From: Prorocentrum cordatum
Taxonomy: Eukaryota
Assembly: GCA_963575745.1 (NCBI GenBank)
Contig: CAUYUJ010000060.1
Coordinates: 62,001 to 118,871 of the forward strand
Direction of reading: 5' to 3'
Length of the DNA: 56,871 nt
This document shows, piece by piece, positions 3,204-23,284 of the stretch. The first letter of the stretch is position 1; each line of letters opens with the position of its first letter. The notes beneath the pieces were generated by a model. That model saw nothing but the letters and a program-made list of their open reading frames with translations. It made no database searches and was not told where the DNA came from. The translations under genes were made by a program, and so were the position numbers.

Positions 3204-3373
3204 TTAAGCCGGGCGTGTCCCTCTACAGGAGGATCTTGGACGAAAACCAAATGATAGTCAACAAGTAGTCTGGGGACGATGTTTCTATTATTTTTTGGCC
3301 ATGTTTGAGCACTGTTTGGCTATATTGTATTTTTTGTCCAAAATCTGCCTGTAGGGGGACATGCCCGACCTAA
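3204..3373. mobile_element. MITE family A copy (~27-bp TIR TTAAGTCGGGCATGTCCCTCTACAGG)
   Basis: Reads ttaagccgggcgtgtccctctacagg ... cctgtagggggacatgcccgacctaa. The 8-bp flanks aattaacg and ccctaacg partly match. A more damaged copy follows at about 3383-3678, and a solo end lies at 4512-4541. Confidence 0.75.
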
Positions 3374-4045
3374 CCCTAACGTTCAGGTCCCTCTACAGGA
3401 TGGATATTTGACGATTTTTCCATGATCTTTTGACCATTTTGGAACACTGTTTGATTACACATGGTTCATTTCTCATTATTCGGAAGCTCTTTGATTTTTT
3501 TGGGGGCCAAGATCCTTTCATTTCTAATTGCTCTATCCTGGGCCTCTCCCTGGCCACTGGGGGGTCAGGAACAATGAGAAACGAGCGCACTTAGAAATGA
3601 GCACGATTAGAAATGAACGACGTGCATATTTTGTTGTTCGTCCAGAAGCCGCGTGTAAGGGGACATGCCCGGCCTGACCCGAACGTTCCCCTCACGCTGC
3701 AGTCGGCCCAGCTTAGTAGGTCGGCCCTGCCAACTCAGGGGTATACCCTTGTGCCCTGTGCCTCGCGACCCGTGCTTCCCACATTCCTGCGGCAATGTGG
3801 CCCCCGGACGGGTCTTGTGTCCTCTCGCGTGTCCTGTCCAATCGAGTCCGACTGGTAACGCTCCCCGCACGCTCCAGTTTTCGGGGACTCGGGGCAGTCC
3901 TCGGAGCACGCCTCGGGCGGCTCCGACCTCCGGGACCTCCTCCTCCCCGTGCTGCCCCTCGCCGGCCCTGCCCCTGCACCGGCGGCGTGGCTCGGCAGCG
4001 GCTCGGGGGCCCCCCAAACGGGGTGGCGACCACAGCGTGCGGTGA

Positions 4046-4241
4046 TCGGGGAACAGAAAGTGACGTAAGCGTGAAAACTCAGAGGTCCGCGCAGATTTCT
4101 CGGATCGGCGCTGGGGCCCCCCCGGCGGCGCCTCCGTCGCCGCCCCCGCTCCGCGCGCCAGGGAGGGGGGTCCAGCGCCGATCCGAGAAATCCGCGCGGA
4201 CCTCTGAGTTTTTTATGTTTATGTGACTTTTTGTTCCCCTA
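4046..4241. mobile_element. MITE family B copy (~75-bp TIR, 5-bp TSD GGTGA)
   Basis: The left arm tcggggaacagaaagtgac...gaggtccgcgcagatttctcggatcggcgctgg is inverted to ccagcgccgatccgagaaatccgcgcggacctc...gactttttgttccccta. GGTGA occurs at 4041-4045 and 4242-4246. Confidence 0.85.
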
Positions 4242-5261
4242 GGTGAGTCGGTGGGGATGCGGGGTCACCGCGCGGTTTTGGGACTAGGGTCGTTCTCCGA
4301 GGACATCTCGAGCGGCAGGCGCCTCCAGGGTCCAAAGACCGTGCGGTGACGGACTGTGTGGTGAGGTCTCGGGGAATTTCGAGGTCACCGCACGGCCTGT
4401 CACCGCACCGTCTCGGGACTCCAGAGTGGCTCGGGGGGTGCCCGCCCATGCTCTTGGAGCTGCCAGCCGGTGCTCGCCTCTGCCGTCGAAGATGGGAGAT
4501 CGGCATAAACATTGAGTCGGGCATGTTCCTCTACAGGAGGAATATTCATATATATATATTAATTATATATATATATATCATATATGTATCATTGTTAAAA
4601 CGTAATATATATATACATGTATATATATTCCTTTATCCTATAAAATCACATCCGGAAACCCGCCCGGCAAATCCACAGCGGCCGGACCACGCCATCATAG
4701 TACCCCACAAAGGCGCACGAAGAGCCCAAAATGCCTCAAGAGGCCCCCGCTCCCTCTGCCAGACGCCTTCAAGTGGTCTTTTGGACCGGCCCCAAATGCA
4801 TCCAAAACCTTTTACGATGGCCTCATGGTGGCCCAAGACGCCCCCAAACAGCTTCAGAGCCTCCCCAAAACGGTCCCAACAAGGCCCCCGCACGGCCGCA
4901 GAGCCCTCCTAGACGTCCAAGATCGCCTCACAGCACGGCCGCAGAGCCCTCCTAGACGTCCAAGATCGCCGCACAAGCGGCTTCGAAGCGCCTTAAGACA
5001 GCCCCCCAATCCGAACCGAAGTCCTCCCTAAAGATCTCGACGGCGTCAGACGGGCCAGGAGCGCTTAAGCATGGTTCCAGAGGCCCCCAAGAGCCCCCCA
5101 AACGCCCCCAGCGGACCGAGGAGACTCTCAAGATCGCTGCAAGAGGCCCCCAGCACACTGTCAAGAAACCCCAAGCGTGCCAGAAAACTTTCCCAGAGCG
5201 CCATCCTCCTCCTTCTTCTCTTTCCCAACAGTTCCTCCGGGATTTCTTCAACAGCTGGGAG

Positions 5262-5770
5262 AGTCCGCAGCCCCGTCTCAAGGACGACGTTCTGTCAAAG
5301 AGTACACACGGCCACCCCCGTTCCTCTCATGTCTGCTCTGTTCTGTCTAAGCCGCATCGAGTCTAAGCGTGCGCGAGTGTGACTGCGAGCGCCCATCCGT
5401 GGATCTGGCTGCCCTACCCCTTTGTGAACGTTGTCTGGGTGTGGCCACGAACATGTCCAGGCGGGCCACGATGTATCGCGGACGCTTCTACAAAACTCCC
5501 AGCGGGCCCCCAAGGGTAAGATCCAATGCTTTTCCTTAGCTACTCATGTGATTCTCTCATTCTCGTCTTTCGGACTCCAGAGCGTCCCAGACAGACCACG
5601 AGGCCTCTATACGGCCCGACGAGGGCGCAAGAGAGCGCCCCGTCTCCAAGACGCAGCCCCGTCAAGGATTCCACGCGGCCACACATGTGCACACATGTCT
5701 GCATTGTTCTGTCTCAGCCGCATTCAGTCCACGCGTACGTGAGTTTCAATACGAGTGCTTCTGAGTGGAT
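5262..5770 (+). repeat. Diverged direct repeat (~370-bp period) in the Helitron 5' region
   Basis: 5262-5405 resembles 5632-5773 (gccccgtctc...cggccac...catgtctgc.tgttctgtct.agccgcat...gtggatctg). A 38-bp direct repeat also lies at 4890-4970. Confidence 0.75.
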
Positions 5771-5911
5771 CTGTCGCTCTTGGCCTCAGTGATTGTCGTT
5801 CGGAGTGGCGCAGCCCCAGTAGGAGTTACACACAGCGGTCCAGACCCCGTGCTGACACTACTCCACACAACAGCGCAGGTGTCTGCTCCCTACCCCTACC
5901 CACCTCTCTTT

Positions 5912-5932
5912 CAGTACCCATTTAGGCTCAAT
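5912..5932 (+). promoter_or_regulatory. Relict dinoflagellate spliced leader upstream of RepHel
   Basis: cagtacccatttaggctcaat matches DinoSL ccgtagccattttggctcaag at 17/21 and ends 11 nt before the ATG at 5944. Confidence 0.55.
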
Positions 5933-5943
5933 CGTTCAGCGTT

Positions 5944-8311
5944 ATGTTTGCCCGGTTGCCGTGGCGCCACGTGGCTGCGTCCACGGCGGTTGCAAGCGTC
6001 GCTGTGAGTCATAACGACTCCCCGAGCCGCACTCCGCCTGTCATCGCTGCGCGGACCGGGCTTTGGACATTACGCCATGCCCGATTCCTGACGCAACCAT
6101 CCCTGGTTTTGTGCAGCCCGAAGGCCGCAACACTGCAATGTTCTGCGTGCCAACAGCACTTGCCTCGAACAGATTTCAGCGACAACCAAAGACCCAGATC
6201 CACAAGGAAGTGCCACGCTTGCGCCGCCGGCGCTAACCCCTCCGACCCTCACACCACATTCTCTTGCGCTGCTTGCGGTGACGTCCTCCCCCGGGATAGT
6301 TTCAGCACCAGGCAACGCCATGAGAAAACAAAAGTGTGCATCCAATGCATCGGTCGCGCTCATCCTCCTCGGTCGTCTACAGCTTACCAGTGCGCCAGCT
6401 GCAAAGCCACGAAGTCCGTGGATGCGTTCGTTCCTCGAGGCGTCCCTGGACCAGACCCTGTCTGCACTGACTGCACAGCGGGCGGCCGTTACACGGCGGC
6501 TTGCGCAAAATGCGGCCTCGTCCTCCCTCTGGACGACTTTGGCAATCATCAGCGCGAACATCTACTTGGAGTGTGCCGGTCCTGCGCCGAGCCTGGCAGA
6601 CCTTCTACCCAAATACATTCACTTTCCCTGGGCGCTCTCGCCAACCCTTGCGAACATTGCGGGGCACCACGCTTCCAGCGAGAAGTTCGAGGCTTCTGCT
6701 GTGCACAAGGAAAGTACGCCATTGACTTCTCGCAGTACTACCAGCAGCCAGGCGATGCCCTTCTGCAGCTGTACAGACGCACCTGGCCTGTGAAGACTAC
6801 GCACGGGAACCTCGTCCACGACGACGCCACGAATGCGCCCAAGCTTACGGGCTTCACTGCGGATTCTCGCCGCTACAACAGCCTGCTCAGCCTCGCCGCC
6901 CACGAGGTCCAGAGCGCCACACCAGAACGAGAAGTTCGATTCGGGGGCGTCCTCCGACCATCGTTCATCCGCATTCACGGCACCATGTACAGGAAGGTGT
7001 ACTCGGCTGCCGACTCTGGGCCAGTCCGCTACCTCGTGGTCGACGACCGTGAGCGTCGCACGTGCGCCCGAGACCACGGCCTCGACCTCTCCATCGTGTC
7101 CCAACTGGAGAAGCTCATCATACCGCACAATACACACATGCAGCACGTTCAGCACCTCAAATCAGTTTGGCCCCGTGCCTCTGAGGCTTCCGTCAGTCTC
7201 CGGTGGGACGAAGGTGTGCAAGAAGTTGCCGCAGTAGTGCAACAACGCCCCGACGCCATCGCCGAACCCAGGGCAGTGCGCTTCCGTTTGACGCCAGGCG
7301 CTCGCCCACAATACCTCTCGCCCTTGCACTGCCTTTACGAGCCTCTGAGCTACCCGCTGTGGTTCCCCTACGGAGGCCGCGGGTGGAGCACCGACGCCGT
7401 GTCAACTTCGGGCAACCGCGTGACGCAGATGTGGTGGTACCGCCAGCACCTCCTCCGGCAACCCCACATGCACGCGTGCGGGCGTCTGTTGAACGACTGG
7501 CTGATCAACATGTACTGCCGAATGGAGGACGAGAGGCTGTCGTTGGTCCGGAGGGAGCAAAGCACCCGCATTGCCAGCCGAAAGGATTTGTGCGAGGCCT
7601 TGGCCAACGAACATATCCCCCCCAGCGCAATCGGCACCAAGTACTACCTCCCTTCCACTGTCCCCGGCTCTCCACGCCATCTGAAACGACTCCGAGTGGA
7701 CGCATTGGAACTGGCACGCCGCAAGGGACCCCCTACTTACTTCATAACCCTTACCTGCAACCCCCACTGGCCAGAGATCCGAGAGGCACTCTCCCCTGGA
7801 CAAACCGCCGCCGACCGCCCTGACATCGCAGTGCGTGTCTTTCACGGACGTCTGGAAAAGATGATGGGCTACCTGAAGTCAGAGTTTTGCGGCCAACGTC
7901 GGTACGTCATTCGCGTGATCGAGTACCAGAAGCGAGGCCTGCCGCACGCGCACATCGTTCTCGCATGCACCCATCCCCCACCTACAGCCGAAGACGTGGA
8001 CGCCGTGATTTCCTGCGAGGTTCCGCCCGAACCTGGCAAGCTTCGTGACCTGGTCTTGCTCCACATGGTCCACCGCTGCAACCACTCCTGCCACCCTGAC
8101 GACCCAGCGCAGGAATGCGTCAAAGGGTGCCCTTGGCCTTTCAAGGACGACACTGACTTCGACGTTCGAGGGTGCCCCCACCACCGACGCCGCTCCTGCG
8201 GCCACACGTGCCCGAACTGCGTGCAAAACGCTCCTGCGTACGGGCGCCGGAATGTGTGCTGCAACCGGCTCGTCGTCGAGTACTGCCCCCGCATACTCTT
8301 GCTTTGGGAAG
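5944..8311 (+). CDS. Helitron RepHel exon 1: tandem zinc fingers and HUH Rep motifs 1-2
   Basis: Four CxxC-x20-CxxC units start at 6139, 6265, 6391 and 6502. Also present: Helitron-type CEHC...CCAQGK (6649), YEPLSYPLWFPYG, PGSPR, motif 1 YFITLTCNPHWPEI (7738), motif 2 VIEYQKRGLPHAHIVL (HUH at 7945-7953) and HMVH. Confidence 0.93.
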
Positions 8312-8727
8312 GACCGGCGGAACACCTCTCCGCGCAAAGTTCCTCATCCACTTACTCGCGCCCGCGAGCACCTTCCCCGCATTTCCCCACCTCTTTTCCG
8401 CAGACTTCCACTTCTCCCAATTCCTGCCCCCATGGGTCCCCCAATGTATGTTTTCATACATTATCAGCAAAAAACGCATGCCAAAAAAACTGCTTCCGAA
8501 GGGACATTTTTTGACACCCCATTTCCAAGCCCGCGCCTCCGCAAAACGTACGTTTTCGGCAGTCGAGGGACGCCCTGGAAGTCGGATTTGTAGTGCTTCC
8601 CCACCCATGGTTTTCTTCTTCCCTACTCCTTTTGGACCGTACGTTTCCCTAGTCCCTCCCTCTTCTTTTTCCCCCCTTAACCCGTCATGTCCACCTCCTT
8701 CCCGATGCGGAGAGGTGTTCGGCCAAG
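8312..8727 (+). other. 416-nt GA-AG intron with terminal inverted repeats (introner-like)
   Basis: Junctions are GAAG|GACC...CCAAG|GACAC. Removal joins LLLWEG to HANVKF and restores the frame. AAGGAC is repeated at 8309-8314 and 8725-8730. The 18-bp TIR (8316-8333 and 8707-8724) matches at 17/18. Confidence 0.85.
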
Positions 8728-11122
8728 GACACGCGAATGTAAAATTCGCAGGCAACGTGAACCTCTTCGAATACCTGTACAAGTACATCTTCAAAGGCCC
8801 AGACCACACCCAAAACCATATATCTGACGCCACGACAGACGAAATCACAGACTGGCAACGTGGACGGTATTTATGTGCAACAGAGTGTGCCTGGCGTATT
8901 TTCGGATACCAGACCTACGAACGCGCCCCCCACGTCATCTGCCTACCAGTGCACCTCCCCGGCGACGATTGGGTAACCTTTGCTGACGGCGGCGAGGCGG
9001 ACGCGCTCCAGACTACCGTTTCCCCTCTACAACGCTACTTTTTCCGGCCCACCGCTCCGCCTTTCAACGACCTGCTTTGCCACGAATACTTCGAATCCTT
9101 CATGGTCGCCAAGACGTGCCCGATTAGCCTCCGATGTTTCTTCCCGGACCTCTTCCCGGATGCGGCTCAACGACCTCGGGGCCCGGCAACTTTCACATTG
9201 GAGTGCCGGGTTCGTGGAGCCTTGCGCACATTCCACGTGCCGCCCGTCCTCGACGCAGCTCCAGGAGGCAACCAATTCTTTGTCTACTTGAAGCAGAAAG
9301 GCGAACATCCAGTTTGCCGCTTAGAGATGAAGTTTCCCCGCCAGAAAGATGTATTTTTCTTGCGCCACATGTTGCTCAACTACCCCAAGCGCAGTTTCGA
9401 GGAATGCAAGACTCACGCTGGACATAGATACCGATCTTATGAAGAGGCAATGATTGCTACGGGGCTTTTCACCCACGAAGACGAAACCTCTCGAGTAATG
9501 GACGAGCTGGTCTCGCTCCGATACACGGCCTCCCAACTACGGTTCGCTTTCGTCGTCCTCCTCGAGCAGGACGCCAAGCCCCGCACGCTGTACGAGAAGT
9601 ACGAGACACACTTGATGAAAGATTTCCTCGACAGGGGTCTCTCCAAGGACACCGCCCGCCAGGAGCTACAGCGAACGCTCAAAGCATCCTGGCTGGCCCA
9701 AGGCAACACTGAGGAAGCCTGGGTTCTACACTCCCCCGCTCACCCCACCACTGCCCGCGGCGCGCCCGTGCCCGACTTCACCCATTGCACCCCAGCAACA
9801 GCGGCATCAGAAGCCAACAGACTGTGGAACCTGATCAAACGAGACCCGGATCAGTCCGGGGCCGCCAAAGACGTCATCGACGGCGTGCGTTCTGGCGCGT
9901 CCAAGCTCATTTTCTGCCAGGGTCGAGCCGGCTGCGGCAAATCCACCCTCGCCAAGTACATCTCCTACTACGTGCGGTCCCTCGGCAAAAGCTGCGTCAA
10001 CGTGGCTTCAACGGGCATAGCGGCCTTAAACTTGCCAGATGGGGCCACCGCGCACTCGACTTTCAAGATCCCGATAGAAGACGCAGAGCACCTCACCTGC
10101 CGCCTGGGGCACTCCTCCGCGGGCGCCCTCACCATCGCGGCCGCTGCCGTCATTCAGTGGGACGAGTGGCCATCTTGCAAACGCGCTGCCTGGGATGCGG
10201 TCCTCGACTACCTCGCGCTCCTGCAGCAGGCTCGGCCAGACATTTACGTCCCAAAAGTCATCATCACCTACGGGGACTTCCGCCAGATACCGCCTGTTCT
10301 GAAGCACGCGTCTAGACAGGATGTCCGCGCCGCCAGCGTCACAACGTCGGCTTCGTGGCCCTCCTTCCGCACTTGGCAACTCCGCACCACGCACCGACAA
10401 ATCCACGACAGTGACTACGCTTCATGGATCGAACGCATCGGCCAGGGCGAGGTTCCGCACACGCACACCATTGATGGCGAACCCGGCTATATCGAGCTCG
10501 ACCGCTGCTCCGTGACCCACACCATGGACGACGCCATCACTCATTGCTTCCCACACATAAACGACCCCGCCGAGTGCGCCGATCGGAAGATTCTGACAGC
10601 AACGATTGAGGCGAGAAACACCTTTAACGACCGTATCCTGGATACTCTGACGCGCACTTATCTGCTGCACGAGTTCATCGCCAAAAGCTCGGACGCCATT
10701 GAATACGACTCCAACAACGACACCGTCGAAGATCACATCACCGCCGAGTTCCTCAACCTGCAGGACGAGAACGGAGTCCCCCCACACGCTCTCCGGCTCG
10801 TTGTTGGCGGCCTCTACGAGCTGATGAGAAACTTCAGTCCGTGTGATCGCTTGATGAACCACACGCACGTCGTGCTCAAATCGGTCTACGAGAAACACGT
10901 CCTCGTGGAGCGGCTCGATGGGGAGCAGTTTCCCTTGCCCAGATCTGCTTCCGCTGGGCACTGGGGCGGGGGGCCACCACCATCCGCCGACGACAGTACC
11001 CTGTGCGTCCAGCGTACGCTTCGACGTTCAACGGCTCGCAAGGCACCACGCTGGCCCGCTGCGTGGTCGACGTCCGCAGAAGCCCGTTTTCCCACGGCCA
11101 TCTCTACGTAGCTTTTTTTTTT

Positions 11123-11153
<31 letters not shown>

Positions 11154-11426
11154 GTGTTTTTTTTTTTTTTTTTTTGTTCTCTTTTTTTTTTTTTTTTGTT
11201 TTTTTTTATTTTTTTTTTTTGGAGCCGGGAGGTGGAGACTCGAACGACCATCCGCATCTTCACACTGCCGGAACGCTGCAGCACTGCTGGCAAAGCCCTC
11301 ACCAAAAACGTGGTGTGGCCTGAGTTCTTGCTCAACGATTCTGCCCCATCGGTTGCCCGGAAACGACCGGCGGCGAGTTCCCGCGACCAGCCTGTTAGCA
11401 GCAAGCGCGGGGCCCGACGCCGCTAG
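8728..11426 (+). CDS. Helitron RepHel exon 2: Rep motif 3 and Pif1-like SF1B helicase; frameshift near 10942 and T-tract at 11113-11220
   Basis: Motifs: YLYKYIFKG (8772), GRYLCATECAWRIFG, Walker A GRAGCGKST (9921), VASTGIAA...GATAHSTFKIP, WDE, GDFRQIPPV, PPHALRL. After a 1-nt frameshift it reads RRRQYPVRPAYASTFNGSQG...FSHGHLYVA. After the T-tract it reads SR...TKNVVWPEFL to the stop at 11424-11426. Confidence 0.9.
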
Positions 11427-11681
11427 GATGCCTTCTTCCTCCCTTGCCTTCGCGTGGGCGCAAAAACAGACCATCGCCGTTCCTCCGTCGTCGCCCTCCC
11501 TCCTCTCTCCCCCCGCGTGCCGCCGCCCCGCCAGCCCTGTCGGCCCGCCAGCTTGCGGGGCCATTTCAATTCTCTCGTTGCCGCCACGCAGTGAGCATTT
11601 CGGCTGCCAGGCTCCGCCGAGCGTTCGTCTTTTCCTACACTTCTCGCACGTTGGGCCCCCTTCCCTCCCACCTGCGCCGCG

Positions 11682-12530
11682 ATGCCTACCGTCTTCGCCA
11701 AGCCCGCTGCCGCCCCCAGCGTCATGCGCAGGCCAGCTGGCAACGCGGTCCTCGACACGTCCGTGCCGGTGCGCGCGCAGCCCGACGTTGGGGACCGCAT
11801 CCGCGCGTCCCTGTACACGGTGAACGTCACGATCGAGATGGTCGACACGCCGACGAAGGCCAACGCGGGTTCTCGCCTCGCGCTGTCCGACGGCATCAGC
11901 ATGCGCAGCGGGGCCCCCGCCAACCGCCACGGCCTCACCACTACAGTGAAGAGGGCCACCGACCTGCTGAAGTTGAACCAGCCACCCAACGGAGTATGCG
12001 TTTCCGCTGAAGGGCTCCAGCCACCGCAGGCCGGGCATAACCCTACCTCCGGGAGGAGTTGGGCCTGGGTGGTGGCCGCCTATGGCGACAGCGCCAGAGC
12101 CGCCTCCCTCGCCACGGAGTACGTGGCGACCCGCGCCGTCGACATCATCACCCACTGCTTCTTGAAGGCCGACCTCCACGTCCCGGCGACTGACACCCAG
12201 TGCGCCTGGTCCGCCAAGTCCACGCTGCTGAACAATCGGGTGTCCATCCGCCGCACGGGCTCCATGACGAATGGCCAGACGTACGAGCTCAACGACCTGA
12301 TCAATTTCGTCTACACGATCCACCCGAACGTCCCGCCCAAGGTGGCCCGCGCACTCAAGGACTTCTTCGACGCGTACCCGTCCATCATCACGGAGGGTGC
12401 AGGCCCGGCCCTCGTAGGCCCCGCCTCCACGACCGTGCACCACAGCACTTCCGCTGCGGCCGCAGCGCCGAAGCGCGGGGTGAAGCGGCCCCCGGCGCCC
12501 AGCGCGGCGAAGAAGGCCAAGAAGCGCTGA
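11682..12530 (+). CDS. Helitron cargo ORF, 282 aa, unknown function, basic NLS-like C-terminus
   Basis: ATG-started intact ORF with visibly G/C-ending codons and non-repetitive protein sequence. It ends PKRGVKRPPAPSAAKKAKKR and lies 255 nt downstream of RepHel on the same strand. Confidence 0.75.
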   Translation: MPTVFAKPAAAPSVMRRPAGNAVLDTSVPVRAQPDVGDRIRASLYTVNVTIEMVDTPTKANAGSRLALSDGISMRSGAPANRHGLTTTVKRATDLLKLNQPPNGVCVSAEGLQPPQAGHNPTSGRSWAWVVAAYGDSARAASLATEYVATRAVDIITHCFLKADLHVPATDTQCAWSAKSTLLNNRVSIRRTGSMTNGQTYELNDLINFVYTIHPNVPPKVARALKDFFDAYPSIITEGAGPALVGPASTTVHHSTSAAAAAPKRGVKRPPAPSAAKKAKKR

Positions 12531-12634
12531 TGCTCCAGGCCCAGGCAACTCCAGCGCAAGTTTTTGAATGCCGCGCTGGCTCCCCGTAGCCCGCCGCGTT
12601 GCGCGGGCTGTCATTTTCGTGAGTTCTTGCGGTT

Positions 12635-12920
12635 CCCGCTCGAAAACCTTGCCCCCGCGTCGCGGCCCATTACGGTTCTGCCGCGCGCCCGCTGGCACTT
12701 CTTTGCTTCGCGATTCCCTTATTCAGCAGACTTCCACGTTTTGCAAATCTACGCCCCTGGGTTCGCCCAGTGTATTTTTCCATATATTCGCAGCCAAAAA
12801 CCGAGTGTCAAAAAATCGGGCCCCCAAGGCGTATTTCTTGACATCCCGGTTTCGCACCCGCGCCTCAGCGAAACGGACATTTTGTGCCCCCCAACGATAC
12901 CGTGGATGTCTGATTTAAAC
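12635..12920 (+). repeat. Diverged paralog of the RepHel intron interior
   Basis: Shares colinear blocks with 8314-8590: cgcgcccgc..gcac, gcagacttccac, tgggt.c.ccca.tgtat, caaaaaa, ttgaca.ccc, cccgcgcctc.gc.aaacg.ac.ttt, gtc.gattt. Confidence 0.75.
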
Positions 12921-15858
12921 CGTGCTTCATATTTGATCATCCCCTTCACGACTCATATTTCGGCCCCGCCTTTTCTTCTGATATTTTTGTTTGTTTTTTC
13001 TTTTTTTTATTTGGTCTCTTATGTTGTTTTCTTTTTTGGTTTTGTATTCGGTTTTTTTTGTTTGTTTCCGTCATTATGAGGCCTGTTTAGTTCTTACTTC
13101 TCTCTTCTTGGGGGTGTTTTTTTGTTTTTTTCTGCTGAGCCTCGTCTCTGCTTTTGGTGTCTTTCAGCGGAAGACGGCGTCGACCTCAGAAGGGAATCAT
13201 CGCCGGTCGTCCTTCGTCCGTCGTCGTCTCCCTGTCCCTGGCCCTGTCATCCCCTTCCGGGGCATACGGCCTCGCGCATCCACAACCGTCCGCTAACATC
13301 CTGCCGCTCCAGAGGCAACCGTGCGAACGGTTTCATCCGTATCCCACCTCTTCTTCTTCGTCGTCCTCACCCTCTACCTCCTTCCCCTGCCTCCACCTCA
13401 TGCCCCCTCCTCTTCCTCGTGCCTCCTCTTCCTCCCGCCACCTCCAACTCCTCCTGTCACCTCCGCTGTTTCTTGCTGCGTTTCCACTTGCGTCAACCAG
13501 CCAGATCTTTCTCCCCGGACCCGCCCCCCAGGCCCCCATGAGAGCCCACAGGACCCCAAAGGACAACACAGGACTTCACAGGTTGCCACCGCACGCAACA
13601 AGCTTTTCAGTGGGTTGTCTTCCGATTCGGCAAGACCGCGCGTCCCCTTACAAAATATCGCCGGGCATGTACTTCTCTTCTGCCCTTGACACCCCCGCCT
13701 CCTTCAATCACTTGCGTGTAATCAAAGCGCATCGTACACTAACGATCCACCCGGAAGCGTCATTGCCTCTTCGCCTTCTCGCCAATATTTTCGACGGCTT
13801 TTCTCGCTCGGCCGTCACGTTTTGCCGAGATCGGTCTTCCGCGCCAAGCAACACCCCCGCACATTATGCGTTGAATCCCCGCCTCCGTCAGACAGGATCG
13901 GAATGCGCCCAGAGCTATTGCATCCTTTCGGTGTGCCCTACTCGCACACCGCCCTTTAGACCCCACGAGCATTGCATCCATACCGCAAGTCTGGCTTGCG
14001 CATGTCGAATGTTCTTGAAGTGGCTTCCGCCATTCCGCCGCCCCCCAGAAGAACTTCCGACCATCGTGGAAGATGCATGCTGGCCATCGGCCCCGCCCGC
14101 CATTGTGCCTGGGCTGTGGGAGATACCACGTTGGGGCATACAAGAGTCGTTGTAGATGCCTTTCAAGGCCCTCTGGAGGACGCTAGGGAACATCTGGATA
14201 ACGCTTATGAGAGTTATTCCAGGTCCCTGGAGGCCTCTTCCGGCACCTCGATACCTTCTTGAGGTCCTTCGGGGCGCCTCCGGGGCCTCTGCAAGGCTCG
14301 AGGACCCGTTTTAGGACAGATAGCTCCTCATGTGAAGTCGTCTTCTTCTCTTTCGCCCCTCTAGCATCCTCTTGGGCCGCTTTGGGATATTTGGACATCT
14401 CTAGAGCTCCTCTTCGACCCCCAAAAAGGGATGCAATACACTGCAGGGACGCCCACTCATCTCACACACCTTTGCGCACCTACCCAGCAGAGTTGAGCGG
14501 ATCTCACACACATTCCGAATGTGACTCCGGAGCCATCTGGGTCGAGCGTTTCAGCCCCTGTCTCCTTCCATCATCTTTCGCATTTCGACCTGCTGTGCCA
14601 TCGAGCGCTTTGCGCAAGCCCTCCGCCACCCCATCACATTGCGTCTGGCACTCGAGAAGAACCCTAAAGACCCCTACCAGCCTAACGATCCCGTCAGGAC
14701 CTCGCACCATGTTACAGAACCACACAACAAAAACACTTCTCACTGGAACATCAAAACCCCACACGCCCCACAGCACTCTACAGGGCCCCTCTGGACCTCC
14801 CAGGCTCCAATCGGAGAACACAAGACCCTTCAAGCCTTCCAGGCCCCGACAAGCTCACCGTACTTCCCAATACCCACACACACCTTTCGCACCCTACGGG
14901 ACGCCACAGGACCGCATAGGACAACAATGATTCCAAAGCACCCCAATATTACCTGACGCCCCACCGGACCTCACTGAACCGTGTGCCCCATCACAGGCAT
15001 CAAAAACCCAACGCGCGTCCACATGATCTCATCACGCCACGCGGGAGACCGCAGGACCGAACACGACTGCAGAACCCAAACGTGCCCACATAGAACACCA
15101 AGGTGCCCCCCAGAACACCAACGATCACCCACAAAACTAGACCCCGCCAGACCCCACCGAAGTTTCAGTCCCGACGAATCCCACAAAAGCCGACAGGATT
15201 CCGTAAGACCCCAGAACCTCGACGCGACCACAAAAACACCAAGGTCGCCCCCACGACATTTCAAACCTACATCTTGCAAAGCTTCCGAAGTCCACACAGG
15301 ACCACGCAGCCGAAGTGAGAACCCGGCGAACTCAAGACCCCCAAAACCGAGAATGCACCCGACTATACCCAATAAGACCTTTCCGGACCCCACAGACCCC
15401 GCACACCTTTTCGCGGAGCAGATGTTTCTCCACTGGCGGCCACGCCGTCACGAGACAACACCATCTCTTATATACTTTAGGGCGCTGCCTCTGGGTGCGT
15501 GGAGTCGTGCCTCTCAGCCCCTGTCTCCTCATCCGCGTTGTTACCTCCACTTCCTCCATATCGGCTCTCCGCTGTACCATCCAGACTGTTAGGTCACCTC
15601 CTCCGCCGTAATCCCACCCTGTCCTTTCGTTGCTCTCCCTCTCTTTATCTTCCACCCTCTGCTCACTTCTCTCCGTCATCGCCGCTCCGCGCACCTACCC
15701 CCTACACCACGCGCCTCTTGCACTTCACCCCGCTCCCTTCCCATAATCGAACAATCCTCTCCCGTCCTTCCTTCTCCCGCGTCTGCTACGCTCCTTCTCC
15801 TACTGTTTCGCACGCCTGTGGCCCTTCTTCGGGTTGGCGACGATCCCATTCGACAGCG

Positions 15859-17319
15859 ATGCTGGACTCCAACGAGCAAAAATCAATACGGTCAGCCTCG
15901 TCTGAGGGCGTACTGGGCGTTGTTTGCGACAAAGACCTTCTCACGCATTGGCATTTGATGTTGCCCTGCCGCAGTTGTATGAGTTACGCTGCGTACAAAG
16001 ATATGTCTCACTTCCCCATCTGTTTTCTCGACGGCAGCTGTTCTTACAAAAAACACGACCGCGACATTTTCTTGAACGCCGTGCAAAAACGGAAGAATGG
16101 ACGAAGAGACATGCACCATTGGATTCCGATAGACAAGTTGCCTGAAGCATTCCACCTACCCAAACTCGCAGACACCATCCAGCCCGAAGTGGACCATGAT
16201 TTCCGCACGCGGAAGCTGAATCACTTTCATCCGATCCTTGACAATACAAGCGCCACCAAGCACTACCTACTGATGGCGAATAAGAAGCAACCCTTGACGA
16301 CGTTGGCGCTGTTCATTTTTATGTCTACTTTGTACCTTAATGAGGGCCACTACCTGGTCACGGTCTTAGCCGTTTATCACTGGTTAGCGCACCAGAAGCA
16401 ATCTCGACAAGAAATCGTCGCCAGCAGCGCTGCCCGGGACAAGCTCCAAAGCCGCCTCCTGGACGTTCGACGGCACATGTCCGCAGACGAAAAACTACCT
16501 GCCTTGATCTCCACAGACGCCTACAATGTGCAGCGCTTCTATGATGCTTTGGTGCTTTGTGAGACTCTGTACGGACGACAGCCAGATGCCGGCTACCACT
16601 TGCCGAGCTTCACGCCCGGCGACGATTCGAAACAGTTGTTGGGCGAAGGCGTTGGCACCAAGCCCCACCGCGTGGCTGTTCGCATGCATCACATGGCCCA
16701 GACCTTGACGGAACACCAGGCTACCCTGAACGGTAGCCCTGTGCTCATGGTTCAGATGACGAAGACGCTTCTCGCCACCCACGCTTCGTGGCTCCCGTAC
16801 CAAGCTCAACTGGTGTATAAACGATTCTTTGAGAGTTCATTCGGCACACTCAATTGGCACCAATCAATTATGTCTGAGCTCACATTTATGGAACACGTCG
16901 GAGACGGTGACTTCTACTTTTTGAGACACCTGTGCCCGGCGGCCTTCGACATGTACAATGCTCTCGCTGATAGGGAACCCACTGATAGTGGCAAAAGAAC
17001 AGTGGCTGCCAACGTCACGCAAGCAGAAAGGGAGCTTGGCCGCACGCTGGTGCAGATGCTGACGTCGCGGCAACACTCCATGGGCCTGCATTGCCGCGTT
17101 AACGCGTTGTTGGGCATGGACCTCATGGATTTTGATGAGACACAATACACGATCTGTGAGAATCGAACTTTCCTGTGGGGGTCCCGCATGCGCAAGAAAA
17201 TGGCGACAGACACGTGGCTCCACCAAATGCGCTCCGCGCACAGATCCTGGCACAGAGAAACCCTACTCCCCTTCGTGTGGGGGGCCGTGGCCTTGCGCGA
17301 CGGCAAGCGTTCGAGGTGA
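15859..17319 (+). CDS. Helitron cargo ORF, 486 aa, candidate aGPT-PPlase1 / 5-hmdU DNA kinase helical-domain homolog
   Basis: Intact ATG-started ORF with complex sequence. Ordered motifs DHDFRTRKLNHFHPILDNTS (16192), STDAY (16510), GVGTKPHR (16648), PYQAQ, SELTFMEHVGDGDFYFLRHLC (16873) and QYTICENRTF (17143) parallel the family consensus as I recall it. Coding status is likely; the family call is tentative. Confidence 0.6.
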   Translation: MLDSNEQKSIRSASSEGVLGVVCDKDLLTHWHLMLPCRSCMSYAAYKDMSHFPICFLDGSCSYKKHDRDIFLNAVQKRKNGRRDMHHWIPIDKLPEAFHLPKLADTIQPEVDHDFRTRKLNHFHPILDNTSATKHYLLMANKKQPLTTLALFIFMSTLYLNEGHYLVTVLAVYHWLAHQKQSRQEIVASSAARDKLQSRLLDVRRHMSADEKLPALISTDAYNVQRFYDALVLCETLYGRQPDAGYHLPSFTPGDDSKQLLGEGVGTKPHRVAVRMHHMAQTLTEHQATLNGSPVLMVQMTKTLLATHASWLPYQAQLVYKRFFESSFGTLNWHQSIMSELTFMEHVGDGDFYFLRHLCPAAFDMYNALADREPTDSGKRTVAANVTQAERELGRTLVQMLTSRQHSMGLHCRVNALLGMDLMDFDETQYTICENRTFLWGSRMRKKMATDTWLHQMRSAHRSWHRETLLPFVWGAVALRDGKRSR

Positions 17320-17626
17320 TCCTATTGTCTTTCCTGTGAGCCACGCCTGTCTAGACTTCCGACCCCGCCTGCTTACGCCAACGCCGTTGCTGTTCGTGGG
17401 GCCACCGTGCCATCGCTTTCTCTTCGCAAGAAAAGTCACTCCTCATCCTTCTCCTCCTCCTCCGCCTCCTCTCCCATCCCCTCGCCCTCGTCGTCGCCGT
17501 CGCCGCCCCCAAACCGCCCTACCCAACCTGTAGTCTAGGCGACGAAGACAGGTCGCCGGGGGCAGGGCCTGCGGCGAGCGCGACGGGAGCGCCCGCGCTT
17601 GCCGTCTCATCGACGAAGCCATGGGC

Positions 17627-17666
17627 CAAGATTTAAGGCGAAGCGGAGCGAGCCTTCAAAATCTTG
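17627..17666 (+). other. Candidate Helitron 3' terminal hairpin
   Basis: caagattt-aaggc-(gaagcggagcga)-gcctt-ca-aaatcttg, followed by T and TA-rich sequence. Confidence 0.6.
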
Positions 17667-17694
17667 TATATGTATATACACATACATACAGATA

Positions 17695-17891
17695 CTAGAA
17701 CCACGCGCGCGCTTTGCGCGCGCTTAGGTTCTAGCTCGGCTTCACGGTCGAACTTTGAAGACCTCTACTTTGTGGCAAATGCCTCTGGGGCACCCAAGAA
17801 CTACGCCAACGGCCCATGGGACTTCAAAGACCTCCTGAGGCCATCCCACAGCGACCTAAGAATGGGCCAAGAAGTCGTCGTCGTCGTAGAA
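17695..17891 (-). mobile_element. Candidate short non-autonomous Helitron, tail-to-tail with the large one
   Basis: The minus strand ends gcgcgcgcaaagcgcgcgc-gtggtt-CTAG|T (GC hairpin plus CTAG-T) and begins TTCTAC near 17891. TA/CA microsatellite flanks both sides. Confidence 0.5.
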
Positions 17892-18077
17892 CTGTGTATG
17901 TATAAGCATATGTAAATGTATATGCATGTGTAAATGTATGTGTGTAGGTGTATGTACATGTGTGTAGATATGTGTATAGTTTCAAATGTATATGTGTAAG
18001 TACACGTAAATGTATGTGCATGTGTATACAAATATATATATATATATATATATAGATATCTGTACATACATATAGTC

Positions 18078-19060
18078 GGCCCTTGGGCCGTCTTGGCGCC
18101 CTCTTGGGCTATCTTGGGGGCCTCTTGGGAGCGTCTGCGGTTCGCTTGGGGAACTCCTGGGGACCTCTTGGACAGTCTTCGAAGCCGTGAAGGCCCCAAA
18201 ATGGTGTACGTTTCGCCTACAGGAATGTAGCGAACTCGGTCTCTTGGGATCCTCTTGGGAGTGCTCTTGGAGGCCTCTTGGGACGACTCGGAGCCTTCTT
18301 GGACCTCCTTGGGGCCATCTTGGGCAGTCTTGGGCGCCTCGGGGCCTTCTTGGGCCTTCTCGGAGCCCGTATTGGGGCTACCTTGGGGCGACTTGGGCCG
18401 CCCTGGGGCCGTCTCTTGCCCCCCCCCCTCTTGGGCTGTCTTGAGGGCCTCTTGGGAACGTCTTGGGCTCTCTTGGGCAAGTCTTGGGAGCCGCTTGGGC
18501 CGTCGTCGAAGCCGTGAAGGCCGAAAAGTCGCATACGATAGAAATGCACGTCGTCCTCAAGAATTCAACGAGTGTGGCGTCTTGGGGCCCTCCTGGGGCT
18601 GCTCTTGGAAGCCTCTTGGGACGCCTCGGAGCCTTCTTGAACCGTCTCGGGGCCATCTTGGGCCGTCTCGGGCGACTCGGGGCCTTCTTGGGCCGTCTTA
18701 GGCGCCGTCGTGGGGCCAACTTGGCCGTCTTAGGCGGCCCTGGGGCCGTCTTGGCGCCCTTTGGGGCTGGCTCGGTGGGCTCTTGGGAACGGCTTGGGCT
18801 GTCTTGGGGAAGTCTTGGGATCCTCTTGGACCGTCTTGAAAGCCGCGAAAGGAAAACTCGTACATGCTAAAAATGTGCGTGTCCCCATTGGAATGTAATG
18901 ATTTGGGCCTCTCGGGTCCCTCTTTGGGAGTGCTCTGGGAGTCCTCCCTGGGCCGTATTGGGCAGCTCGGGACCTCCTTGCACCGTCTTGGGGGCTTCTT
19001 GGAACCCTCTTGGCTCGTTTTGGCACCCTCTTGGCCTCTCCGGGCCGCCTCTGGGGAGCG
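18078..19060. repeat. Degenerate tandem array (~330-bp period) built from ~11-bp GGGCCTCTTGG subrepeats
   Basis: An aagccg(t/c)gaa anchor recurs at about 18182, 18509 and 18840. Confidence 0.75.
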
Positions 19061-20639
19061 AGCGCAACGGGGGGAGTAGCGGCGGGCTTCCGCCGACAGT
19101 GGCGGGGTCGGCGGGCCCAGGCTGGGAGGGGGGGGGGACACTTGTTCATATGATAAATGATCCACATGTGATCCTGGAGAGGAGGAGGAGGAGGAGGAGG
19201 AGGAGGAGGAGAAGGAGGAGGAGGAGGAGGAGGAGGAGGAGGAGAGAGCCTCTTGGGATCCATATGTGATCCTGGATCGAGAGTTCACAGCCCCCCCCTC
19301 AGATGGGATGGGCCCCAGGATTCCACGGCCACCCCCCAGGTGGGATGGGGGGCGGCAGCGTCGGCATCGGCTGGATCACACGTGCCCTCGCGAGCTGGAC
19401 ACCGAGGCGCGACTCCATGGCTGCGCAGGGACACGCTCCGAGCAGGGCGTTCGCGCAGAGCCGCCATGTATCCCAATGGGGTCGCGGCCAGATCGATATG
19501 CGACGGCGACAAGGCCCAGCGTTGAATAGCAGAGGCGGGAGCCAGGGGGGAAGCTGGCGCCCCGCCGCGAGGGCCCGCGGAGGCAGACCCTGGGCCAAGC
19601 AAGGAGGCCCGCCGCCGTTGTCTCCTCGCGGCGAGTGGAGTACCCATACCGTCGGGGCGTGGACCTTAAGGAGCCCAAAATGAGGAACGAGGCCCCTAGA
19701 CAGCCCAAGAGGAAGCCGAGAGAGGCCCCAGAGGCCCCCTGGACAATGCAAGAGGGCCCCGACTCGCCGAAACATCGCTCGAACCGCCCAAGATGCCCCG
19801 AAGACAGTTCCGGAAACCTCCAAGACGTCCCCAAGTCTCACCCCCCCTGGATCGGCGGCACTGGCCGGAGGCCAGCCCAATAAGGAACGAGGCCCCTTTT
19901 CTCCAGAAGTTAACCTTCGACTTCCCATCGAAGACCTAGGGAAAACCTGAGGCAAACTGTGAAACGATCAAAGGAACACCGAGCCCCTCCCCAACGAACA
20001 GGGCTCCTTCTCCAGCGCCCCGACTGTACCGCTTCTCCTCGGACCTCCCCCAGGGCGCGTTCGGACCACCAGCCCTTCGAGGCGAACCCGGCCGCGGCGA
20101 CGGGGGTCTCTCGGGAGGCCCGAGGAGGCGAAAGCGAGGCAAAGGCAGCGGTGTCAGCACCCGTCCCTCATCCGAGGAGCGGCAGCGGCGGGAGCCCGAG
20201 GGAGACGGCGGACGCACAACGCTCGGCGCGGGAGCTGCTCTGCTGCGCGTGGAGGCGTCCGCTGCCCGAGCTCCTCGGGGTGCCACCGCAGGGCGGCCAG
20301 CGCGCTGTCGATGGCCTCCCAAGGGGGTGGGCACTGCCTCCCTCATTCTGCTGCTGCTGCTGCTGCTCCTCCTCCTCCTCTTCCTCCTCCTTCTCGTGGT
20401 CCTCCTCCTCCTCCTCCTCCTCCTTCTCCTCCTCCTCCTCCTCCTCCTCCTCCTCCTCCACCTCCTCTCCCTCCTCCTCCTCCTCCTCCTCATCGTGCTC
20501 CTCCTCCTCCTCTTCCTCCTCCTCCTCCTCCTCCTCCTCCTCCCACTACTTCTCTCACTCCTCCTCCCGCTCCTTCCTTCTTCCTCTTGTTCCTCTTATT
20601 CCTCTTATTCCTCCGTCTCCTTGTCCGCCCCCGCCTTCT

Positions 20640-21270
20640 CCACCTCATCGTTCTCAAAATGTGTACCTCGTCTCAGCGCCGCGAACGTCGTCGTAAACAT
20701 GTGCATGAGCTTCTCGGACGGAAGGCGGGTCGTTTCCAATATGTGGTTCTCACATTCGCGCGACGCATACTCCTCTTCAACAGCTGCATGAGTTTCACGG
20801 GTGGAGGGCGGTTCCTTTTCAAAATGTGGCCCTCGCTTTAGCACCGCGCACATTCGTCTTAACAGCCTACACATGCTTCAAGGATCCTCATGGCTGACGT
20901 CCCAGAAATGGTATTTTGTGCGATTTAGGATAGCCAAGGCGCGACAGTCACGTTGATTCGCCGTGTTGACGTCCCAGAGATGATGTCCTGCCGCGACTTA
21001 GGGTCGTCAGGTCGCAACAGGAACGTTTGTTCGCAGCGTTGAAATATAAGGCGTGGTGCTCCGGCTCGGTTGCCGACTTCCAGACGAGTGTCTTCCAGAC
21101 GGTTGCCGTGCCAAGCATCATCGCGAGCCCAAATCCCACTGCGCAGGCTGCAGAAACTGATCCCCAGGGCAACTCGCCAAGCTCTGTCACGTGTTCTCGC
21201 GAAGGCCGGGCCCGCTGCTTTGAATATGTAAGACAAGTGCGAGGGGTGCCGGGATCGAGAAGAATCGAGA
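20640..21270 (+). repeat. Repeat family C copy with degenerate 83-bp internal units
   Basis: cagcgccgcg..catt units are followed by gacgtcccagaaatggt and gggtcgtcagg.cgcaacag, as in the copies at 21600 and 29865. Confidence 0.65.
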
Positions 21271-21599
21271 TCGTACTTCGTCCCAGGCTTGCGTTGCTCG
21301 CTCGCTCGCTCGCCACTCGGGCTGACAGAGCCACGATTGAAGCTGAGCCGCCCTCTAGTGATGAGGGCATGGCCTTGTTCCTCATCCTCCTCCTCCTCCT
21401 CCTCCTCCTGTTCCTCCTCCTCCATCTTGCTTCCTGCTCTTCCTGCTCCTCTTCCTGCTCCTCCTCCTCCTCTTCCGCTCCTCCTCCTCCTCCTCCTCCT
21501 CTTCTTATTCCTGCTCCTGCTCCTGGTCCTCCTCCTCCTCCTCCTCCTCCTCCTCCTCCTCCTCCTCCTCCTCCTCCTCCTCCTCCTCCTCCTCCTCCT

Positions 21600-22630
21600 C
21601 CCTGTCTGTCGCACCCCGAGATGTGTCGGCGGGGCGGGCCAGGCGTTTCGCCTGCGACTTCCTCACCACGTACGATCCTGAAGCTGATAACTGTTTAGAA
21701 TACCTTCACGGATGGAAGGCGGGCCGTTTCATTACGTGGCTCTGGCCTGAGCGCCGCGCACAATCCTCTTTAAGCTTGCCAGAATTTCACGGATGCTGAC
21801 CGGGTCGTTTGCAAAAAGCGGCTCTCGCAGTGGCGCCGCGCACATGCGTCTTGAAGATTGCAGGATTTCACAAGTGGACGGCGGCTCCATTTCAAGATAT
21901 GGCTCTCACCTCCGCACCGCGCATATTCCTCTCTTCAAAGTTTACAAGATTATTCTGGATGGCGGGCGGGTCATTTTCAAAATGTGGCTCTCCCTTCAGC
22001 GCCGCGCACGTTCGCCTGGAAAATTTGCAACAACTGCACGGGTTGAGAGTGGGCCATTTGCAAAATGAGTCTCTCGCATTAGCACCGCGCACAGACGTTT
22101 TGAAAGCTTACAAGACCTCCACGGATAAAAGGCGGGCTCCTTTTCCAAATGTGGCTCTCGCCTTAGCGCCGCACGCATTCGCCTTTGAAGTTTACAAGAG
22201 CTTCCCGGATATAGCTCTCTCTCTCTCTCTCTCTCTCTCTTCAGCGCCGCGCACATTCGTTTTAACACTTGCAAGAGTCTCGCAGATGGAGGACGCATAA
22301 TTTTCAAAACGTGACTCTCGCATCAGCGCCGCGCACATTCGTCTTCGAAGCTTATAACAACTCAACGGATTCGGAGTGTGGACGTCGCAGAAGTGGTGTT
22401 ATGGCACAGCTTAGGACTGTCAGGGCGCAACAATCACGTTGATTCGCAGTTTCGAAGTCCCAGGAATGGTTGTCTGGCACGATGCAGGGTCGTCAGGACG
22501 CAACAGTAAAATTGATTCACGACGTTGTAACCCCAGAGGTGGTGTTCTGGCACGATCGAACGTTCTCAGACGGTTATCCTGCAACGGTGCACTGCCAGCA
22601 GTGCAAATAAATCCATGCAGGGACCTATGA
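21600..22630 (+). repeat. Repeat family C copy (about 7 degenerate 83-bp units)
   Basis: Head ctgtcgcac...gcgtttcgcctg.gacttcctcacca, then repeated gtggctctcgc..agcgccgcgcacattcg. Confidence 0.8.
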
Positions 22631-23284
22631 AGAGGAAACCCGGAGGGAGGAATTATGGCATCGTGGACTGGGTCGTGGGTTTATACGCTGGTCCTCCTCC
22701 TCCTCCCTCCTCCCTCCTCCTCCTGGGCGATCGGTCCCAGGAAGACCCTGGCCCTGGAGCGGGCGGCCTTCAACCTGCCCTGGGTGGCGCGCGGACGGGG
22801 CGACGCGAGGGGGGCCGGCATTCCAAGAAGGCGGGAGGGGGGCCTCGTAGAAGGCAGGGGCCTTTCTAGGAGGGCCCACGGAGCCCACGAAAAAAGGCCT
22901 GCCGGAGGTCAGGAGGGCCTCACACAGAACCCCCCCGCCCCCCCTGCAATCTCGGGAGCTCCCCAGCACACCTTCTTTTTGTTGTTGATTGTGTTTCTTC
23001 TTCTTCTTATTCTGTTTCAGCTTTTTTGTATTATTAATACTCTTATTGTTATTAGTATTATTATTATTATTAGTAGTAGTATTATTATTGTTATTGTTAT
23101 TAGTATTGTCATTATTCTTATTGTGACGACTCTTAATAATCTTATGAATAGCGCTCGGTCATCGGGGGGCCCCAGTGGGCCCGCACCAAAGGTCACTCTG
23201 GCGAAGGGTCACTCTTACGTGAAGCCGACTCCAAGCCCCTGCTTCGTGGGCAGGGGGTGATGGGTGGTCGGGGCCGCCCCGGGC

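Follow-up and report, generated by a model that had tools for sequence, protein, structure and literature searches.

Helitron-like elements with extra genes

In Helitron-like elements, additional genes are often found in reading frames of their own, among them ones for RPA, OTU, an endonuclease and 17 further domains, and Helitrons are also known for the capture of genes (PMC11417382). TET/JBP dioxygenases are encoded by fungal Helitrons and other DNA transposons, which presumably evade methylation in this way (PMC12730594), and in Amphidinium transposons are marked and silenced by 5-hydroxymethyluracil (5hmU) (10.1101/2023.11.30.569493). A Helitron2-like RepHel, the transposase of these elements, was published from Symbiodinium microadriaticum (CAE7237458.1; Heringer and Kuhn 2021, PMC8788227), with a position close to the Helitron2/Helentron base. 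Here we analyse a stretch at about 4628-17666 of 56,871 nt of DNA (the window), which an earlier note had described from its letters as a three-gene Helitron, a RepHel followed by two orphan open reading frames (ORFs). We consider it probable that the stretch holds a single copy of a dispersed repeat unit of ~13 kb that was amplified recently, and that this unit is an autonomous Helitron-like rolling-circle transposon of a Prorocentrum cordatum-like dinoflagellate. The three genes all lie in the same orientation, as the note had described:

5944-11426, + strand: gene 1, a Helitron RepHel with three breaks in this copy
11682-12530, + strand: ORF2, 282 aa, lineage-restricted
15859-17319, + strand: ORF3, 486 aa, of a conserved family without a name

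The element belongs to a broad kind, that of Helitron-like elements with extra genes, and what is new is its accessory gene pair, one member of which has a predicted glycosylase-like fold, the introner in its transposase gene and its spliced-leader relic. It resembles the S. microadriaticum element in that the host is a dinoflagellate and RepHel has no apurinic/apyrimidinic (AP) endonuclease domain; no mention of extra genes was seen for that element (PMC8788227), and the one in the window has two of them, an introner in RepHel and a spliced-leader relic. Among the papers listed for Helitrons together with DNA glycosylases, no report of a Helitron-encoded glycosylase-like gene was seen, and one dinoflagellate Helitron was found discussed (PMC8788227); the HELIANO and introner supplements may list more. 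Dinoflagellate Helitrons are barely described, and the family in the window provides a full-length, apparently recent example.

One repeat unit in near-identical copies

Logan contigs from four runs of four studies were aligned to positions 3500-18100 of the window; 4542-4630 and 11107-11226 were skipped as repeats, contig ends there being uninformative, and low- or zero-cover stretches in runs X2, X4 and X5 carry no interpretation. Near-identical contigs covered 4941-17436, and the eight pieces listed for run X1 had 31 substitutions in 10436 aligned bases (~99.7% identity), with the non-coding spacers included, which fits the earlier proposal of a young insertion. A single X1 contig of 5328 nt covered 11934-17436 and ran from ORF2 through a 3.3-kb spacer into ORF3, skipping only 12968-13155, while a run contig at 4941-5815 had the same depth as the genes. 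Of the 25 X1 bins from 5448 to 17622, all but two had a depth of 17-45 (23 bins; 79 and 109 in the remaining two), and the flanking bins reached thousands, with the reservation that depth in read contigs does not equal copy number.

ORF2 was 99% identical to two P. cordatum sequences, CAK0870439.1 (P0102, on a 254-kb contig) and the C-terminal portion of CAK0851755.1 (P0103, on a 1.07-Mb contig), which places the window in P. cordatum or a species very close to it. The P0103 gene model fuses the helicase to ORF2, and its N-terminal 530 residues are the same helicase as that of the window. With helicase and ORF2 joined in P0103 and ORF2 bridged to ORF3 by the X1 contig, the assignment of the downstream genes to the RepHel element is borne out. 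Homology did not stop at ~11.5 kb, shortly after RepHel; since it runs past this point at 99.7% and with even depth, the block is best seen as one young repeat unit. The element was assembled in two marine metagenomes (192 and 963 million letters of contigs), and many copies per genome are loosely suggested.

Three distinct versions were seen, those of the window, P0102 and P0103. The differences from the window are the same in all four runs, and two of these run variants, Met to Leu at 11724 and Ala to Thr at 11880, are carried by P0102, which makes the window a minority copy; the majority sequence of the family lacks the frameshift at 10937. Among 40 listed of 216 differences, 19 were coding, and 13 of these changed an amino acid while 6 were silent, as expected for neutral decay of a transposon copy. 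Decay of the window copy shows in its 1-nt frameshift, in a T-rich insert of 188 nt that it alone has, and in differences from the majority sequence that mostly change amino acids.

The RepHel gene and its interruptions

The assignment to the Helitrons made in the earlier note was confirmed by Pfam, RepHel matching Helitron_like_N (E 5e-43) and PIF1 (E 3e-42) in a frame that in this copy requires removal of 8314-8729 and is shifted after 10937. The feature that defines Helitron-like elements, an HUH/two-tyrosine nuclease fused to a PIF1-type helicase of superfamily 1, is therefore present, and its motifs can be read directly: GLPHAHIVL (HUH), YLYKY (two-tyrosine) and GRAGCGKST (Walker A). The only solved relative was the bat Helitron transposase Helraiser (7lcc), matching RepHel residues 456-752 with E 2.5e-42, and the N-terminus has three Cys-rich stretches resembling Stc1 (Pfam Stc1, E 2e-11). 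The parts of the gene are as follows:

5911-5932, + strand: relict spliced-leader-like 22-mer, 18/22 matches, 12 nt ahead of the RepHel ATG
5944-8313, + strand: RepHel exon 1; N-terminus rich in Cys and Stc1-like, together with the HUH portion of the Rep nuclease
8314-8729, + strand: introner-like miniature inverted-repeat transposable element (MITE), 416 nt inside RepHel, between the HUH and two-tyrosine motifs
8730-11113, + strand: RepHel exon 2, with the YLYKY motif and the PIF1-type helicase; frameshift after 10937
11114-11219, + strand: T tract, 106 nt, its length not a multiple of three
11220-11426, + strand: helicase C-terminus with a basic tail; stop codon at 11424-11426

The cargo ORFs had been described as intact and intronless, which stands for ORF2 and ORF3, both uninterrupted; RepHel is not intact in this copy, its frame being broken in three places. 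At the first break, exon 1 terminates with NRLVVEYCPRILLLWEG at 8313 and the protein resumes with HANVKFAGNVNLFEYLYKYIFKG at 8730, so that the HUH and tyrosine motifs come to lie on opposite sides of the 416-nt insert. Excision of 8314-8729 fuses LLLWEG to HANVKFAGNVNLFEYLYKYIFKG in frame. The insert has 18-nt inverted arms (8316-8333 and 8707-8724, 94% complementary) and is surrounded by a duplicated AAGGA (8309-8313 and 8725-8729); its junction, G|GA...AG|G, would require a GA donor. GA splice donors are used by dinoflagellates. Introners of the terminal inverted repeat type are frequent in dinoflagellates (PMC12130899), and those of P. cordatum are defined by inverted repeats of 8-20 nt and direct repeats of 3-5 nt, no more than 30 bases from the intron ends (PMC10666404). 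As the inverted ends and the AAGGA duplication agree with this definition, we label the insert introner-type. It shares inverted and direct repeats at its ends with dinoflagellate introners and differs from them in sitting within the transposase gene of another transposon, where it is a putative intron. The insert was also present in the run contig at 8251-9529, and it is common to all sampled copies. Two further features lie downstream of ORF2:

12722-12928, + strand: partial copy of the introner core, 71% identity, without the inverted ends
12968-13155, + strand: T-rich stretch, 188 nt, private to the window copy

The T-rich stretch was skipped by X1, X2 and X5 contigs, which carry TTG in its place.

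The second break is a frameshift caused by one base missing behind 10937 in the window copy; contigs of runs X1 and X2 have an additional C behind 10937 and a G at 10941, which gives PLPRICFRW, as in P0103. The third is the T tract, which parts HLYVA from WSREVETRTT (WSREVETRTTIRIF). The P0103 gene model is without this tract and reads LYVALSRVETRTT, and the C-terminal end of RepHel matches the P0103 segment ETRTTIRIFTLPERCSTAGKALTKNVVWP. Run contigs end at both edges of the tract, within one of the regions skipped in mapping, and the tract may be spliced, copy-variable or disabling.

The sequence 12 bases before the RepHel ATG (TCAGTACCCATTTAGGCTCAAT) matched at 18 of 22 positions what we take to be the dinoflagellate spliced-leader consensus. 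Two sites with up to 4 mismatches were found in the window, compared with a mean of 0.01 per Markov-simulated window and any such site in 2 of 200 simulations. By the usual interpretation, reportedly that of Slamovits and Keeling in 2008, such relics mark genes that returned to DNA as copies of a trans-spliced mRNA, and the relict leader suggests that the RepHel gene may once have passed through a processed mRNA. The best sites ahead of ORF2 and ORF3 had 12 and 13 of 21 matches, and were not convincing as relics. A better spliced-leader-like site, with 2 mismatches in 21 bases, is located at 45455-45476 on the minus strand, where it suggests a retroposed gene right upstream in transcript terms.

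Flanks and candidate ends

The block had been described as free of the repeats that fill the rest of the window. None of the 14 arms of the main MITE family lies within 4538-23417, and repeats of the GGA type occur at 1022-1434 and from 19151 onward; with both kinds outside the stretch, the description as a clean block was right, except that another MITE-like element, the introner-like one, is present at 8316-8724. The family of ~160 bp with TCGGGCATGTCCCTCTACAGG-type inverted ends has copies at 3207-3370, 23283-23440, 28193-28341, 28418-28576, 50662-50817 and 55504-55661. The TA-rich flanks noted earlier were recovered as tracts at 4542-4627 (with a tandem repeat at 4542-4589) and 17667-17694, with a further one at 17893-18074. 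Three features are relevant for the ends of the element:

4513-4632, no strand given: truncated MITE of the left flank, with a left arm (4515-4537), a TA microsatellite interior (4542-4627) and the motif ATATTCCT
17627-17666, + strand: hairpin 1, ending in CTTG before T; -9.5 kcal/mol, z -3.2
17695-17734, + strand: hairpin 2, a 40-nt GC-rich palindrome ending in CTAG; -19.4 kcal/mol, z -4.6

In the earlier note the element was inserted between A (4627) and T (17667), with the ends 5'-TTC/CTTG-3' and the hairpin at 17627-17666 as termination signal, a model that in this exact form we regard as unlikely. The hairpin is genuine and does run to the last base (CTTG|T), none of 200 shuffles reaching its DNA fold of -9.5 kcal/mol. 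TA-rich DNA on both sides also agrees with the model, as do a weak similarity of the 5' sequence CCTATAAAATC to the hairpin arm CCTTCAAAATC and the run contigs, which are cut at 4542-4630, so that homology reaches at least ~4630. A contig of depth 17 that covers 4713 stops 83 nt from there, in agreement with an end near 4630. Against the model, the MITE truncated from ~4513 aligns with six relatives in the window through its AT-rich interior to ATATTCCT (4625-4632) and stops there, and the TTCC at the candidate 5' end aligns with the ATATTCC of its inner part. The TTC at 4628-4630 is therefore probably flank rather than element, and if the truncated MITE is not itself part of the repeat unit, the 5' break probably lies nearer to 4633. 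No partner was found for the MITE arm at 4515-4537, the next arm on the + strand being at 23417. In addition, A|T is trivially satisfied in TA-rich DNA, CTTG differs from CTRR, and the arithmetic of the X1 bin 17136-17622 suggests less cover after 17436.

Hairpin 2, starting 28 nt on, also speaks against an end at hairpin 1. It is twice as stable and ends with TTAGGTTCTAG, a CTRR-type end 68 nt past CTTG, with C as the next base, and contigs diverge just after it, 22 of X1 at 17735 and 10 of X5 at 17736. Hairpin 2 is single copy in the window, and may be the true 3' end, shared with many non-autonomous relatives, or a separate foldback repeat. We retain as candidate termini a 5' end near 4628-4634 and a 3' end at 17666 or 17734.

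The canonical HLE1 ends consist of 5' TC, a hairpin with CTRR and insertion at A|T, whereas the candidate ends here are TTC and CTTG, with A|T in TA-rich DNA; the alternative end at 17734 does have a hairpin and CTAG, followed by C instead of T. The element shares with the canonical Helitron Helraiser (7lcc) the HUH/two-tyrosine Rep with a PIF1 helicase and a hairpin close to the 3' end, and differs from it in the TTC/CTTG candidate ends in place of TC/CTRR and in having no RPA-like gene. With Helitron2/Helentron (HLE2), which inserts between T and T, it has in common a RepHel without endonuclease domain as in Helitron2, and the published dinoflagellate relative is placed near that clade (PMC8788227); a stem-loop is present, and T|T would be possible at 4628|4629 (5' end 4629) and 17666|17667. 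Unlike HLE2, it has no 12-16-nt terminal inverted repeats in an exact search, and DUF6570 was not detected.

Several results weigh against the reading of the stretch as a single autonomous Helitron-like unit. The missing right half of the truncated MITE was not found after 17666 or 17734. A comparison of 4300-6000 with 17300-18150 gave no exact terminal inverted repeat of at least 10 nt beyond simple and CCAAGAG-type repeats, in a scan that scored exact matches. DUF6570, proposed as a marker of the HLE2 RepHel (PMC11417382), was not among the Pfam matches (E <= 1) of exon 1, of four RepHel relatives or of partial P0103. In other species, no contig was seen to carry a RepHel together with a relative of ORF3. 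The third-position GC content (GC3) of ORF2 is 0.89, compared with 0.70 for RepHel and 0.67 for ORF3, and suits a captured host gene. Finally, contigs and depths would look no different if a larger block had spread by dispersed segmental duplication.

Such a duplication is part of an alternative in which a RepHel-only Helitron ends soon after 11.4 kb, beside two host genes, and its neighbourhood was copied; we judge this improbable. Dispersed duplicates make up 64.8% of P. cordatum genes (PMC10666404), the GC3 of ORF2 is host-like, no RepHel is seen next to the relatives of ORF3, which lie on contigs of 1.6-3 kb, and no Helitron termini are confirmed for the block, all of which would suit this explanation. 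It is at odds with the 99.7% identity of copies in coding and non-coding sequence alike, with the even depth and with at least three versions on different contigs. Homology passes straight through ~11.4 kb, where no terminus-like structure was seen, in the course of work that included no dedicated search for one, and no P. cordatum ORF3 protein of >50% identity is on record, which is odd for a normal host gene.

ORF3 is a member of a conserved family with a glycosylase-like predicted fold

The view of ORF3 as an orphan has to be abandoned, as a HMMER search of 1.84 billion representatives identified 52 relatives at E <= 0.001, 8 of them at E <= 1e-30; a word-based protein search with ORF3 gave no match. 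Full-length members of the family have 469-503 aa and 28-39% identity, and the alignment spans the full length (residues 1-482 against 1-490 of the relative P0003), with the motifs NEGHY, LYGRQPxxGY, HRFxVR, WxPYQAQ, AGPG and QxxICExR. Most relatives are on the short contigs mentioned above, and their source annotation never goes beyond 'hypothetical protein'. A metagenome scan with the ORF3 alignment gave 5 loci of 1.3-2.2 kb without neighbouring genes, spliced leader or poly-A, a result that is uninformative either way on linkage to RepHel. Neither the helicase nor the hairpin-2 pattern nor the ORF3 alignment found a match in scans of viral contigs. The metagenome contig with the best ORF3 relative (L001) ends at ~1600-1757 in a long near-perfect inverted repeat with a stem of ~65 bp, either a true terminal hairpin or an assembly artefact.

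An AlphaFold model of ORF3 built with 56 sequences was all-helical, with a predicted local distance difference test (pLDDT) score of 90.6 and a predicted template modelling score of 0.90. The top 22 of the 50 rows listed from an exhaustive VIA-align search comprised 19 DNA glycosylases, 2 DUF2419 proteins and 1 phage 5-PmdU glycinyltransferase, with Z of 5.2-9.1 and 165-253 residues aligned, most of each target. The glycosylases among them were endonuclease III, AGOG, NTHL1, Mag1, AlkA, MagIII, OGG1, MutY and ROS1; the DUF2419 queuine-salvage enzymes scored Z 9.1 and 8.8, and the glycinyltransferase of phage PaMx11 Z 7.1. The best BFVD match was aGPT-Pplase1 (probability 0.98, E 0.026), followed by helical domains of 5-hydroxymethyldeoxyuridine (5-hmdU) DNA kinases. 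Judging from the model, ORF3 is rather likely to have a fold like that of helix-hairpin-helix (HhH) DNA glycosylases, DUF2419 proteins and phage aGPT-Pplase enzymes.

The phage aGPT-Pplase/ADDT enzymes act on DNA bases derived from 5-hmdU and need a conserved Cys with a nearby Glu (PMC8989533). In ORF3, Cys433 is invariant in all 31 sequences covering the position; the residue beside it is Glu or Asp in 24 of 31, and position -4 is Gln or Glu in 28 of 29. Two glycines of a G-x-G turn between two helices are kept in 21/22 and 22/22 sequences. By eye, and not by program alignment, the surroundings of Cys433 resemble the ETxxC of the phage enzymes. ORF3 is thus like the phage aGPT-Pplase/ADDT and DUF2419 enzymes (PDB 8z2m, 7u07) in its predicted fold and in the invariant Cys with Gln/Glu at -4, and unlike them in having no detectable sequence homology and ~200 more residues; unlike in the aGPT-Pplase/ADDT systems, no 5-hmdU DNA kinase gene lies beside it.

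A kinship with any of these enzymes is called into question by other comparisons. VIA-align cautions that a Z below ~13 may reflect a common arrangement in helical proteins, and the values for ORF3 are below this. Foldseek of the model against the PDB gave 0 matches at E <= 0.001, profiles of Pfam, PHROGs and the PDB gave no match, and neither did tblastn against phage genomes. Pfam gave no match to the aGPT-Pplase2/ADDT profile (PF18724), and hhalign of the ORF3 family with M6 gp51, M6 gp54 and an 8-sequence ADDT profile gave probabilities of at most 0.2. The link of ORF3 to glycosylases or aGPT-Pplases is one at the level of the predicted fold.

ORF3, with or without ORF2, might also come from another mobile element or from a recent capture and have no role in transposition, which we think quite improbable. 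Gene capture by Helitrons is known (PMC11417382), the three genes differ in GC3, and a protein atlas gave weak leads from ORF3 to Plavaka and Transposase_21 clusters (score 0.92, 130-135 shared features where 170 are typical). A kinship of ORF3 with Plavaka or Transposase_21 was rejected for this low number of shared features. Moreover, unlike the usual captured genes, ORF3 is no fragment but whole, with conservation from end to end and a good predicted fold; there is no transposase among its 50 listed VIA-align rows, and around it the window showed no further pair of transposon ends.

ORF2

No relatives of ORF2 beyond P. cordatum were found in the word-based protein search, and there was no match in Pfam or the PDB and no usable one in the protein atlas. 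The structure predicted for ORF2 alone had a pLDDT of 35 and was unusable. Its C-terminal tail is basic (KRGVKRPPAPSAAKKAKKR), and ORF2 is possibly a nuclear DNA-binding partner; a captured gene and a lineage-specific one are equally possible origins.

Proposed mechanism

For the stretch as an autonomous Helitron-like transposon, we propose that RepHel would nick one strand at the ends of the element, whereupon the helicase would unwind this strand and a single-stranded circle would form and then reinsert. The introner-type MITE would have to be spliced out to give an active RepHel, and the three genes probably follow the dinoflagellate mode of transcription, with trans-splicing to separate them. 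ORF3 would be a base-flipping DNA enzyme. Dinoflagellate DNA is abundant in 5hmU, and because the genome is rich in this base, 5hmU would be the likeliest substrate. On this proposal ORF3 would help the element to escape silencing by base modification, removing or altering the 5hmU mark on the Helitron's own copies, or else would prepare nick sites by creating abasic sites to act as nicks in rolling-circle transposition, like the AP endonuclease in Helentrons.

The silencing by 5hmU in Amphidinium and the fungal TET/JBP Helitrons make an anti-silencing or nick-preparing role the most attractive reading of ORF3, and by this analogy we put forward such a role on 5hmU as a doubtful proposal. The fungal Helitrons (PMC12730594) are comparable in that a transposon would carry a gene for a type of enzyme acting on modified bases, and differ in their host kingdom and in that the predicted ORF3 fold is HhH glycosylase-like, not that of a dioxygenase. 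Equally speculative, going by the modelled fold, is that ORF3 may represent a eukaryotic, transposon-borne branch of DNA-glycosylase-like enzymes, used by a Helitron on 5hmU. If ORF3 does act on 5hmU, it would offer an experimental way into what reads or removes this base in dinoflagellate DNA, and into how transposons escape it. One transposon here unites three dinoflagellate peculiarities, an introner in the transposase, a spliced-leader relic and co-oriented extra genes, and the majority sequence of the family, with an open helicase frame at the frameshift site, could serve as a reference for annotating the huge dinoflagellate genomes.

Other features of the stretch and window

No additional copy of RepHel, ORF2 or ORF3 was found in the window. 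Upstream of the genes, one region remains to be listed:

4633-5943, + strand: non-coding 5' region of the repeat unit, with CCAAGAG-rich repeats and a direct repeat

The CCAAGAG-rich degenerate repeats at 4787-5176 are 60-70% similar, in inverted orientation, to 18094-18842. Such CCAAGAGGCCC-rich repeats (4787-5176 and 18073-19002) bracket the three genes, inverted, with three tandem units of ~330 bp on the right side, and may be part of the element or a local satellite. The direct repeat upstream of RepHel (5270-5407 and 5637-5773, 73% identity) recalls either the duplicated left termini that some Helitron-like elements are reported to have or a promoter present twice.

An antisense frame at 11028-12722 and plus-strand frames at 13154-15592 were rejected as genes and taken as by-products of composition. 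Third-position GC was not raised in the three + frames of 13154-15592, and Pfam gave no matches for the two frames tested, 11028-12722 and 13139-14155. Rfam on 3500-19500 gave just microsatellite look-alikes of miRNA models, far under the gathering scores.

The window has an assembly gap of 100 N at 2681-2780. A very high-copy repeat of 60 nt lies at 4147-4207 and has five copies in the window, with dozens of run contigs starting or stopping at 4147 and 4204. At 34753-37324 on the + strand, two neighbouring frames match RVT_1 (E 2e-7 and 1e-10) and resemble a broken retroelement.

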